Positions 28,985 through 31,031 are shown, counted from the stretch's first letter. The stretch is DNA of 34,881 nucleotides from an uncultured Nitrospiraceae bacterium (GCA_964452795.1 CAYVOE010000003.1:1-34881), one strand, 5' to 3'. Numbers and translations are program-made. The notes: generated by a model not told the origin, from the sequence alone.

Positions 28985-29321
28985 TCGAGACGCAGCCGGT
29001 CCGGAGGGTGCACGGCCCGGGTCTGAACGGGTATAGTATTGACGCCGGGACGGTCGCCCTTTCCGGTTTCACCCCCTACTTCATGCGGCATGACCTGCAA
29101 ACGGAACCCGGAGATCACGGAGCGCGGACAAAAAAGCCGCTGGCCCTTCGCGGTCGGCGGCGACCGGCGGCGGACGACGGGTCACCCTTCACGCGCCATC
29201 GGCGGAGCCTCCGGATGAGGTCCTCGTTTCGGGTCGTATGGGCCGGTCGGGCGGTGGAGTCCGGGGCTTCGAACCGTCCCCCCGTGGAAGGATGAAAGCA
29301 GAGAGTCAGGAGAGACGGCCC

Positions 29322-29873
29322 ATGAGTGCGAAGTCCCTGTGCCCGGTTTGGATAGCCCTGGTACTCCTGGCGGCCGGCTGCGTCAGCACGCCCGTGGTGA
29401 CCGCCCCCGTCGTGAACCCCGTTGCGCCGCCCTCGCCGCCTCCCCTGGCGGCGCCGCGTCCGACCACGCCCGAGGAGTTGATGCGGGGGTTCGTGGAGGC
29501 CATGGCCCAGGGCGATCTGGAGCGGGCCCGGGCCTACTACCTGTCTGCGGAAGAGTTCGACGCCCTGTTCTCGTGGCCGGGCGACGCCGACCCGCGGGAA
29601 CGGTTCGGCCAGCGCATCGCGATGGCGTTGCAGCAGCATGCGGAAGTCCTTCAGGGGGCGCAGTACGTCGGGCTCGCCGAGACGCCGTCGATCATCCCCC
29701 TGGAGGCGCAACAGGCCCTGGCGGGGCTCGTGGTGGATCGGGCGACCCGAGGGATCGACATGGCGACGGCCGTGGTGAATGTGAACGGCCAGGAACGGCG
29801 GGTCACCCTCCAGGGCCTGGTCGACGCCGGAGGGTATTGGCGGGTCTTCGGCCCCACGCTGGAAGTCCGCTGA
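29322..29873 (+). CDS. Hypothetical lipoprotein
   Basis: Lipobox LLAAGC after a hydrophobic stretch; Pro-rich linker; TPEELMRGFVEAMAQGDLERA...YWRV pattern reminiscent of NTF2-like/DUF4878 lipoproteins; RBS AGGAG. Confidence 0.72.
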   Translation: MSAKSLCPVWIALVLLAAGCVSTPVVTAPVVNPVAPPSPPPLAAPRPTTPEELMRGFVEAMAQGDLERARAYYLSAEEFDALFSWPGDADPRERFGQRIAMALQQHAEVLQGAQYVGLAETPSIIPLEAQQALAGLVVDRATRGIDMATAVVNVNGQERRVTLQGLVDAGGYWRVFGPTLEVR

Positions 29874-29934
29874 GGCGGAGGCATTCGCGGCGCCTCGGCC
29901 TGTGGAGCGACGGGGCTGTCCGCCGTGGATGAGG

Positions 29935-30563
29935 CCCCGGAAGGGGATCCAACGCAACGATGCAGGCCGGCCATTGGACGGGACCGTTCCGGGATCGACA
30001 TCCACCCCACTTGTCGTAAGCCTGCGAGGACTGCGCCGGACGGGGCGGTGAGGTCTCCCCCACCCGTCATTGCGAGGAGCGGACCCCTGTGGGAGGACAG
30101 GTGTACGGGGCAACAGTCTATGGTTACACGCATGCCTGTGGTGTGTACTCAGGCATAAGCGACGCGGCAATCTCACATGAGCCGGTGACCCTTGTTCGCG
30201 AAGTGAGGATCCTACCACGGGTGAGATTGCCGCGTCGCTCTGTATAGGCGCCCACAGACGGCATAGATAGACCTGACGTATACCCGCCTCCCGTATGGGT
30301 TTCCACAGAGGACCGCTCCTCGCAATGACGGGTTGGCGGTACCTCACACCCATCGAGCGCAGTCCTCGTAGGCTTACGCGGGGAGGGGCACCCTCACATC
30401 CCGGCCCAGCGCAGTCCTTGTCGTCCTACGCGGAGAGGCCATCTCACATGCGTCTGTTGAGCGCAGTCCTCGTAGCGCTACGACGGGTGGAGCGGATGTC
30501 GGTGGCGGGACGGTTCCGTTCTGTGGTTGACCCGTATCCCTACGTATGCCTCCCCTTCGGGGG
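29935..30563. repeat. Giant imperfect palindrome (REP/RPE-like core) with 3x ~50-nt tandem repeat on the right arm
   Basis: Perfect arms 30062-30082/30313-30333 (21 bp) and 30158-30176/30221-30239 (19 bp); near-perfect arms 30015-30036/30357-30378 and 29976-29991/30506-30521; centre TTCGCGAA at 30195-30202. Confidence 0.88.
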
Positions 30564-30695
30564 ATTCGGACGGGGCGACTCAAGGGGGAACGGGGCGGCG
30601 CCGATACCACACACGAATCCATGGTTTTCGGGAAGGACTCGGTATTCGCACTCCTTTTCTGCCTTTGGAGGGGGTGTGTGCGGGCACGAGGACGC

Positions 30696-30724
30696 TTGAC
30701 AGGTATCCGAGGGCGCAGTAGACT
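30696..30724 (+). promoter_or_regulatory. sigma70 promoter upstream of sugar transferase
   Basis: TTGACA (30696-30701) - 17 nt - TAGACT (30719-30724). Confidence 0.65.
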
Positions 30725-31031
30725 ATGATCAATTCTGGATCTTCGCGTAATTGGGTCGCCGGGTTCAGCGTCGGTGTGCAAGGTTGTGTCGTGATCTGCG
30801 GCCGGATTTCCACGGGTTTGCCGGCCCGGAAGGCCGTCGCGGACGGTGGCTCTCACTTGAGGACTCCGTCATTGGCTCGGCTTCCGGAAGAAGGGCCGGC
30901 GCACTTTCAACCTCCTCTCGTGCCCCGCAGTCGTTTCGCCGCTTCGTTCTCGCGCGCGAGGCCTGCCCGTCGCCCTCTTTCAACTCCGACATTGGCATCG
31001 GTTCGACGCGCGGCGAAAGGGCGGGTAGCTC

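Follow-up and report, generated by a model that had tools for sequence, protein, structure and literature searches.

Between an open reading frame (ORF) and a sugar transferase gene in a 34,881-nt stretch of DNA from an uncultured Nitrospiraceae bacterium (GCA_964452795.1 CAYVOE010000003.1:1-34881, here called the window) lies a foldback that contains no gene. What is this element, and what could have spread it? The original prediction, made from this DNA alone, offered two answers: an undescribed large structured RNA, or a non-autonomous element resembling REPINs (repetitive extragenic palindromic (REP) doublets forming hairpins) or miniature inverted-repeat transposable elements (MITEs). Positions 29935-30563 are one copy of a non-coding, genome-specific, high-copy mosaic foldback repeat, and our results favor the second answer: the dispersed family ends in hairpins that also flank, in inverted orientation, the genome's single Y1 gene. 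We think it probable that the element is an oversized REPIN-like, non-autonomous derivative of this single Y1/HUH element, TIRtron-derived in Di Nocera's terms. The terminal hairpins shared with the Y1 locus, together with the gene-plus-hairpin arrangement and the gene-less foldbacks in relatives, argue for this reading. REP-type repeats are usually 20-110 nt long; here the REP logic, in which hairpin ends are held in common with a lone tyrosine transposase gene, seems to have yielded a nested foldback of 0.5-0.7 kb.

The element is one long imperfect palindrome centred on TTCGCGAA (30195-30202), as had been described; self-alignment and a repeat finder both bear this out. The seven arm blocks were checked base for base by aligning the whole stretch with its own reverse complement, and each reads as originally given. 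Blocks 30158-30176/30221-30239 (a 19-bp pair) and 30062-30082/30313-30333 are perfect, 30015-30036/30357-30378 and 29994-30003/30494-30503 contain one G-T each, 30007-30018/30479-30490 contains two and 29976-29991/30506-30521 three, and the outermost pair, 29935-29947/30551-30563, has a single true mismatch, G-G. The + strand folded as RNA reaches –362.2 kcal/mol (z –12.7), which none of 20 shuffles equals, so the structure is far beyond chance. For the family searches the copy was cut into five modules, A to E, and an nhmmer profile was iterated for each. The features of the window copy, with profile matches in the genome and the basis of the assignment where applicable, are as follows.

29935-30563, no strand: complete mosaic foldback copy, long variant of 629 nt (fold, repeat finder, family membership)
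29935-29947, + strand: left terminal REP-like hairpin, CCCCGGAAGGGGA (family consensus TCCCCGAAGGGGA then TACATACG); also flanks the Y1 gene on contig C248
30551-30563, – strand: right terminal REP-like hairpin, an inverted copy of the left one (repeat finder)
29935-30012, + strand: outer arm, module A, with its inverted partner A' at about 30485-30563; 203 iterated-profile matches
30013-30092, + strand: module B, the left inner arm, with box 1 at its end; 398 iterated-profile matches
30065-30080, + strand: CGTC tag and box 1 (C-GTCATTGCGAGGAGC) of the left half-unit; 223 exact copies, 16-mer CCGTCATTGCGAGGAG occurring 230 times
30081-30158, + strand: left spacer, module C, spacer type 3, 78 nt (spacer typing); 89 iterated-profile matches
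30158-30239, no strand: central hairpin, module D, with a 19-bp perfect stem and a 44-nt asymmetric loop at 30177-30220 (repeat finder, DNA fold with z –5.06); 262 iterated-profile matches
30159-30173, with an inverted copy at 30224-30238: box 2, inside the stem of module D
30239-30314, – strand: right spacer, module E, spacer type 7, 76 nt, not the reverse complement of the left spacer; 118 iterated-profile matches
30315-30330, – strand: inverted box 1 and CGTC tag (GCTCCTCGCAATGAC-G)
30355-30493, – strand: outer part of module B' three times in tandem with a 52-nt period (starts at 30355, 30407 and 30459)

The same architecture recurs throughout the genome. A blastn search located copies at 240 places, spread over 217 contigs and in 130 cases at a contig end, and the module matches form 273 clusters on 240 of the 791 contigs, with 195 clusters within 60 nt of a contig end. 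Together the clusters span 71 kb, or 1.3% of the assembly, and the commonest 16-mers of the genome (242, 230, 138 and 91 occurrences) all come from the element. The foldback thus dominates the repeat content of this uncultured bacterium and is probably the main cause of the assembly being in 791 pieces. The 17 complete copies measure 522-731 nt and keep the module order A B C D E B' A'. Each runs from a terminal REP-like hairpin through A, B, the CGTC-tagged box 1, a spacer of 75-78 nt and box 2 to a loop of 40-49 nt, and then back through box 2', spacer, box 1', B' and A' to the second terminal hairpin. Eight of them fall at 522-536 nt, and the canonical form is about 525 nt (520-536 nt); the window copy exceeds it by about 104 nt because it has three B' sub-units on the right and one on the left. 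Across arms and copies the tandem number of the 52-nt B sub-unit varies from 1 to 5 (four in C74, three in C101), which suggests slippage or unequal exchange within the element. No conserved reading frame is present, and no frame stays open in more than 7 of 44 cores. For annotation, the element accounts for a large "intergenic" gap, in which no ORFs or RNAs should be called. We sought the composite element in 24 same-family genera and 16 same-order genomes, and it is absent from them, one marginal 30-nt match aside. A full-text literature search with GTCATTGCGAG returned unrelated primers only, and no description of the composite was found in the accessible literature; the compact box family may already appear in figures or supplements of PMC3733652 and PMC11893778. 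The assembly (G000) contains runs of N (562 all-N 16-mers), and such masked stretches could hide copies or genes.

A TnpA(Y1) gene, of the kind that the original prediction proposed to look for, is present. PF01797 (Y1_Tnp) has one match in the genome, a 149-residue protein encoded at C248:902-1351 (65.8 bits), and its gene is flanked, inverted, by the terminal hairpins of the element (consensus TCCCCGAAGGGGATACATA; copies start with TCCCCGAAGGGGATACATACG). Each flank contains the hairpin, a second hairpin (CCCAGGGT...ACCCTGGG), the hairpin again and then the first ~25 nt of arm A, where the profile match spans 37 nt. At up to three substitutions the REP-like site occurs 258 times in the genome. 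Neighbouring sites fall into two groups, 87 direct pairs 75-100 nt apart and 13 convergent pairs 500-800 nt apart, and short inverted REP doublets (<300 nt) are absent from this genome. The top 16-mer flanking the Y1 gene, on either side, occurs 138 times; the available text of PMC5581495 gives 57 and 140 for groups 2 and 3 of the REP-associated tyrosine transposases (RAYTs) and about 5 for housekeeping genes, and the present value lies in the RAYT range, well above housekeeping genes. The histidines of the HUH motif, H56 and H58, and the tyrosine Y114 show no variation across 10 homologues and line up with the motifs of ISDra2, and a profile of ten homologues matches the TnpA proteins of ISDra2 and IS608, the closest solved structures, at E 2e-10. 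Among the 40 relatives, 23 have Y1 homologues, with 1-9 copies each and a best identity of 57%. Five of the six homologue loci inspected share the design of inverted flanks with three hairpins, and the relatives also have gene-less foldbacks of about 230-260 nt built solely of Y1-type flanks.

Flanking duplications did not appear: none of the 13 copies with locatable ends has a direct duplication (four more copies could not be placed), and the flanks of most of these 13 continue the palindrome. Inverted Y1 ends without target duplication are a Y1-type pattern and not that of a DDE-type MITE. This matches the REPtron/TIRtron scheme of Di Nocera et al. (PMC3733652) and also REPINs (PMC3337134), on a scale 5-10 times larger. 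DDE-derived MITEs such as Correia elements are gene-less, have inverted ends and occur in high copy number in intergenic DNA. The present element shares all four traits; in contrast to them it lacks target-site duplications, and what its ends match is a Y1 locus rather than a DDE one. By analogy with the TnpA proteins of IS200/IS605 and with RAYTs, the Y1 enzyme would act on single-stranded DNA, recognising the end hairpins and cutting and rejoining there, with no target duplication made. The element would have kept the terminal inverted hairpins of the Y1 element, with the gene replaced by other sequence. In the middle it carries, as cargo, a pair of head-to-head CGTC-tagged boxes of a cross-phylum family that elsewhere brackets small GIY-YIG (Ssn-like) genes.

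These boxes are the most constant part of the element. Box 1 is GTCATTGCGAGGAGC and box 2 is GCGACGCGGCAATCT, and the core, GTCATTGCGAGGAGC ... GCGACGCGGCAATCTC, is a head-to-head CGTC-tagged pair; in the window copy the tag lies at 30065-30068 and is followed by ATTGC. Exact copies make up 223 of 285 box 1 sites and 171 of 269 box 2 sites, and with at most one mismatch box 1 occurs 257 times in this genome. Conservation per site is about 98% in the boxes, compared to arms that are about 70-75% alike. Their geometry is equally constant: the spacer between box 1 and box 2 stays at 75-78 nt (5th-95th percentile of 208 half-units), the central loop at 40-49 nt in all 99 box 2 pairs, and the core at 255-266 nt in 55 copies. 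Four spacer types can be told apart, with 77, 76, 35 and 14 members and about 70% identity inside each. In none of the 54 complete head-to-head dimers are the two halves of like type, where about 17 would be expected at random, and the combination in the window copy, 3 and 7, is the commonest. Single half-units fold on themselves no better than shuffles (mean z +0.28, n=120). The constant spacer length and the always-unlike halves are unexplained constraints and offer concrete handles for biochemistry.

The original prediction had compared the core to a short palindromic repeat family of many bacteria, expanded here by inserts, and this comparison proved sound: the boxes occur in many phyla, and here inserts of about 77 nt and outer arms enlarge them. 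Box 1 is present in 24 of the 41 genomes searched, this one included, with 66 copies in G021 and 0-1 for a reversed control. In the relatives that have it, box 1 lies next to box 2, and the two make up compact palindromes measuring about 100-250 nt. At least 120 stretches in a species-representative collection match an exact 29-base pattern for this compact form; among the matches listed are Bradyrhizobium, Chloroflexota, Oscillospiraceae, Patescibacteria, Bacteroidota, Verrucomicrobiota, Nitrospiraceae, Armatimonadota and Rickettsiales. In one genome of the same family (G004, 4.4 Mb) the core family has undergone a second, independent burst: box 1 is present 385 times, within compact palindromes with 121-127-nt spacing. 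This genome has no Y1 homologue detectable with our query, and GIY-YIG occurs there only as a fragment at a contig end. In G037:C3 (L181) a GIY-YIG gene is flanked by boxes, and a perfect palindromic insert separates box 1 from box 2, so split boxes are not unique to the present genome.

Two repeat systems so far studied separately, Y1/RAYT ends and CGTC/Ssn-type boxes, are physically joined in the element. A tentative explanation, which we regard as possible without favoring it, is that a Y1 (RAYT-like) hairpin system captured an Ssn-type CGTC box dimer and raised the copy number of the hybrid to several hundred, in a genome without an Ssn nuclease. The boxes remain strongly conserved there, at a fixed spacing of about 77 nt and in obligately unlike halves. 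If true, the boxes would be read by something other than their usual nuclease, perhaps by the Y1 enzyme itself, and this would be the first cross-mobilisation between the two known hairpin-repeat systems of bacteria.

How does the element compare with described systems? Bacterial interspersed mosaic elements of Escherichia coli are mosaic intergenic arrays of REPs in alternating orientation with other conserved motifs. They share the mosaic, intergenic character; in contrast, their sequences are unrelated to the present ones, and here a single long architecture of fixed layout is copied as a whole. REPIN-RAYT systems, reportedly described by Bertels and Rainey in 2011, resemble it in several respects: two inverted REP-like end hairpins on a hairpin-forming element without a gene, a single Y1/HUH gene with the same hairpins at its flanks, abundant flanking 16-mers and intact HUH and tyrosine residues, and a lack of identical element copies (no two are identical). 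The interior is different, as it is here a mosaic that includes another repeat family, with arm pairing apparently barely maintained. In TIRtrons, as the available text of Di Nocera, De Gregorio and Rocco (2013; PMC3733652) describes them, a tyrosine-transposase gene (TIRYT) lies between long, partly self-complementary terminal inverted repeats that are also dispersed, in dimers. The Y1 gene with its long inverted hairpin flanks, likewise dispersed as a family and in dimers, fits that portion of the account; the copy number is far above that of the "moderately abundant" families described there, and the present dimers enclose about 400 nt of foreign repeat cargo. According to the same available text (PMC3733652), an unpaired CGTC (or TGTC) tag at one end, with A-T pairs opening the stem behind it, defines a second REP superfamily, reported there without a transposase. 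Like the CGTC-tagged REPs covered in those sources, including Neisseria dRS3/NTS, the boxes start with CGTC and then AT, stand head to head and occur across many phyla, and elsewhere they bracket small GIY-YIG genes homologous to the NTS-flanked one. They differ from the unit outlined in the same accessible text, an 8-9-bp stem with a 4-5-nt loop, in that here the two boxes are 75-78 nt apart and do not self-fold. They also differ from Ssn/SRM systems, as far as the available text of PMC11893778 presents these, in that the published SRM pattern is unmatched and the genome is without an Ssn-like gene.

Movement of the element, its mobilisation by the Y1 protein and a need for the conserved boxes in propagation are inferred, and several observations weigh against the REPIN-like reading. 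REPINs described in Pseudomonas fluorescens SBW25 are 89 bp long with REP-to-REP distances of 34-110 bp in the available text of PMC3337134, whereas the corresponding distance here is 500-800 nt and the element is 5-10 times longer. The Y1 protein falls under the NCBIfam cut-offs for IS200 (43.4 vs 55 bits) and for the REP-associated tyrosine transposase (NF047646; 26.7 vs 80 bits), and it is closer to the TnpA of IS200/IS605. The most conserved parts of the element, the CGTC boxes, are not found beside the Y1 gene. Arm identity within a copy hardly exceeds that between copies (A arms 0.733 vs 0.692, B arms 0.756 vs 0.754), and spacers are less alike within a copy (0.621) than between copies (0.654). 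With such near-equal values, pairing outside the boxes appears not to be maintained in the way reported for REPIN spacers. For only 2 of 45 copies did a single other copy hold the nearest neighbours of both arms, which lends little weight to whole-element movement. Nor was any insertion polymorphism, empty site or excision junction seen: in relatives a homologue of the upstream gene occurs only in G012, where it is non-syntenic, and a 21-nt flank pattern gave two chance matches only in JGI metagenomes. Near-identical partners of contig-end repeats (30 of 195, vs 160 of 1387 control ends) are uninformative. Finally, no single read or contig spans the whole foldback, and all assemblies break in the conserved core. 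Left and right sides share the same consensus, and the nearest neighbours of B units have a median identity of 0.915. From the conserved boxes, the fixed geometry, the drifting remainder and these fairly close nearest neighbours we infer that the copies form a replicating population of long standing, where propagation is limited to those whose boxes and ends are intact. A division into distinct left-arm and right-arm lineages was considered and rejected, as mean identities show no difference; the nearest neighbour is from the same side for 120 of 183 arms, a modest signal.

The break of all assemblies within the repeat, with no Logan contig across it, would also fit a chimeric fold-back join made by the assembler. 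Yet parts of the window occur in 20 runs from 12 studies (compost, manure, sludge and digesters), Logan contigs from three independent studies cover both junctions of the window copy (29500-30081 on the left; 30373 or 30461 to 31000 on the right), and 30236-30489 is tiled without differences. No listed contig piece covers about 30094-30153, a gap that carries no weight either way. Summed contig depth is 950-1685 over the boxes and 10-13 on the flanks; these sums include contigs of other organisms and are thus not a copy number. With 17 complete copies of one architecture in different unique contexts in addition to the junction contigs, an assembly artefact is very unlikely, and we give it practically no weight. 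The structured-RNA answer of the original prediction, or a strand-specific fold of single-stranded DNA selected for G-U-tolerant pairing on the + strand, fits the very stable predicted fold, and we nevertheless consider it highly improbable. It had been argued that arm substitutions are G-U on the + strand only. The full alignment, set beforehand as the deciding comparison, lacks this asymmetry: among 236 positions there are 192 Watson-Crick pairs, 14 G-T and 12 A-C on the + strand, and 18 others, and an A-C on the + strand is a G-U on the minus strand. The blocks chosen originally stop exactly at A-C mismatches (30004, 30006, 30037 and 30041). In the family, with copies oriented by the asymmetric centre, G-T and A-C are likewise balanced (73 vs 76 in the outer A arms of 15 copies, 170 vs 158 in the inner B arms of 48 copies), and arm mismatches include transversions as often as transitions. 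The minus strand folds at least as well as the + strand (–369.6 kcal/mol, z –13.6), and the copies occur in both orientations. A scan of Rfam 15 at E up to 10 gave no relevant match, the best at E 0.68 and all far under gathering scores, and in an RNAalifold alignment of the eight canonical copies the covariation term is +7.58, a penalty. In these eight copies 88.1% of paired cells are paired within a copy, compared to 86.7% with partners shuffled among copies (1.4 points), and double-sided changes affect 24 pairs, mainly in the outer arms, compared to 16.5 in shuffles (9 of 500 shuffles as high). This slight excess speaks for structure; however, the tool itself warns that relatedness without structure can give the same, and the excess is within the range of related unstructured sequences.

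Two other explanations place the function in the boxes, and we find both rather unlikely. In one, the CGTC box pair is the active part, and a small GIY-YIG (Ssn-like) nuclease specific for single strands spreads or processes the family, as proposed for repeats of this type elsewhere; the nuclease gene has been lost or lies in the unassembled 5% of the genome, and the outer arms are hitch-hikers. The boxes are indeed the best-conserved and most frequent words of the genome, and their number does not track the Y1 gene, as neither G004 nor G021 has a Y1 homologue found with this query. A GIY-YIG link, anticipated by the original prediction, stands in other genomes and falls in this one. Small GIY-YIG ORFs lie beside the boxes at 2 of 80 loci, 11 nt away in an Oscillospiraceae record, where boxes bracket the ORF, and 310 nt away, as a truncated ORF, in Falkowbacteria; in G037 the same boxes bracket a GIY-YIG gene, and a counterpart in G021 has canonical NTS-like repeats on both sides. 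The box-linked proteins and the G021 protein are 44-65% identical to each other (30-51% for the truncated Falkowbacteria ORF). In this genome, by contrast, no small GIY-YIG gene was found: PF01541 matches only a 622-residue ORF, which we take to be UvrC-sized and far above the small Ssn-like nucleases, and tblastn with two cognate nucleases gave a best E of 0.83. No enlarged loop could hold such a gene, since the loop measures 40-49 nt in 99 of 99 pairs, and the half-units do not self-fold. The published SRM search pattern matches 0 of the 223 box 1 sites and nothing in the window element, compared to four matches in the positive control L179. Ssn nucleases do cut single-stranded DNA at CGTC/NTS-type repeats (Chenal et al. 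2025; PMC11893778); what the available text reports is cleavage and an effect on transformation, not transposition. In the other explanation the copies are kept by the host as protein-binding sites, nucleoid or replication landmarks, modulators of DNA uptake or 3'-end RNA stabilisers, with the boxes as the functional sites. The geometry that stays fixed despite heavy substitution and the unlike spacer types in all dimers would fit such a role; a transposase requirement would, however, be equally expected to fix the geometry. The window copy lies just downstream of a gene and between two genes of the same strand, and one RNA-library contig, which shows 13 differences, extends from the upstream gene as far as 30093 in the left arm; this contig shows no strand, and DNA carry-over is possible. 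No terminator-like site was found inside the element, and a conserved host role is unlikely given that none of the 40 relatives searched has the composite. The REPIN-like reading remains the one we prefer.

The genes on either side of the window copy are these.

29238-29873, + strand: upstream ORF, 211 residues, without a Pfam match; the element begins 62 nt past its stop codon
31032-32480, + strand: bacterial sugar transferase gene (Bac_transf and CoA_binding_3), starting 468 nt beyond the element

A promoter-like site (TTGACA, 17 nt, TAGACT) lies at 30696-30724, between the element and the sugar transferase gene. As another candidate partner of the repeats we considered the 23S-IVS four-helix-bundle gene (PF05635) and rejected it; the genome has one such gene, with no repeat beside it.

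The Y1-associated hairpins also occur in other arrangements. A small unit of about 88 nt, consisting of the REP hairpin, CCCAGGGTCAGCGAGCG-n-AAGCGAGCGCCACCCTGGG and ...CGTCTTT, is found at C248:690-800 and 1440-1545 and at about 96 sites genome-wide. It sits between direct REP hairpins (the 87 direct pairs at 75-100 nt) and often adjoins foldback copies at one end or both, and it is absent from the window copy. By translation, the neighbours of the Y1 gene on C248:1-2400 are presumably a MoxR-type AAA ATPase and a DUF58 protein. Genes of these two types are usually adjacent, and the Y1 locus may be an old insertion into a MoxR/DUF58 operon. In the relative G014 (C39:80484-81111) tandem Y1-associated hairpins, AGCCCAGGGCAACGCCCTGG, are repeated six times head to tail with 61-70-nt spacing. 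Such a cluster could pass for a CRISPR array, and a similar run lies just downstream of the Y1 gene in G040:C35.

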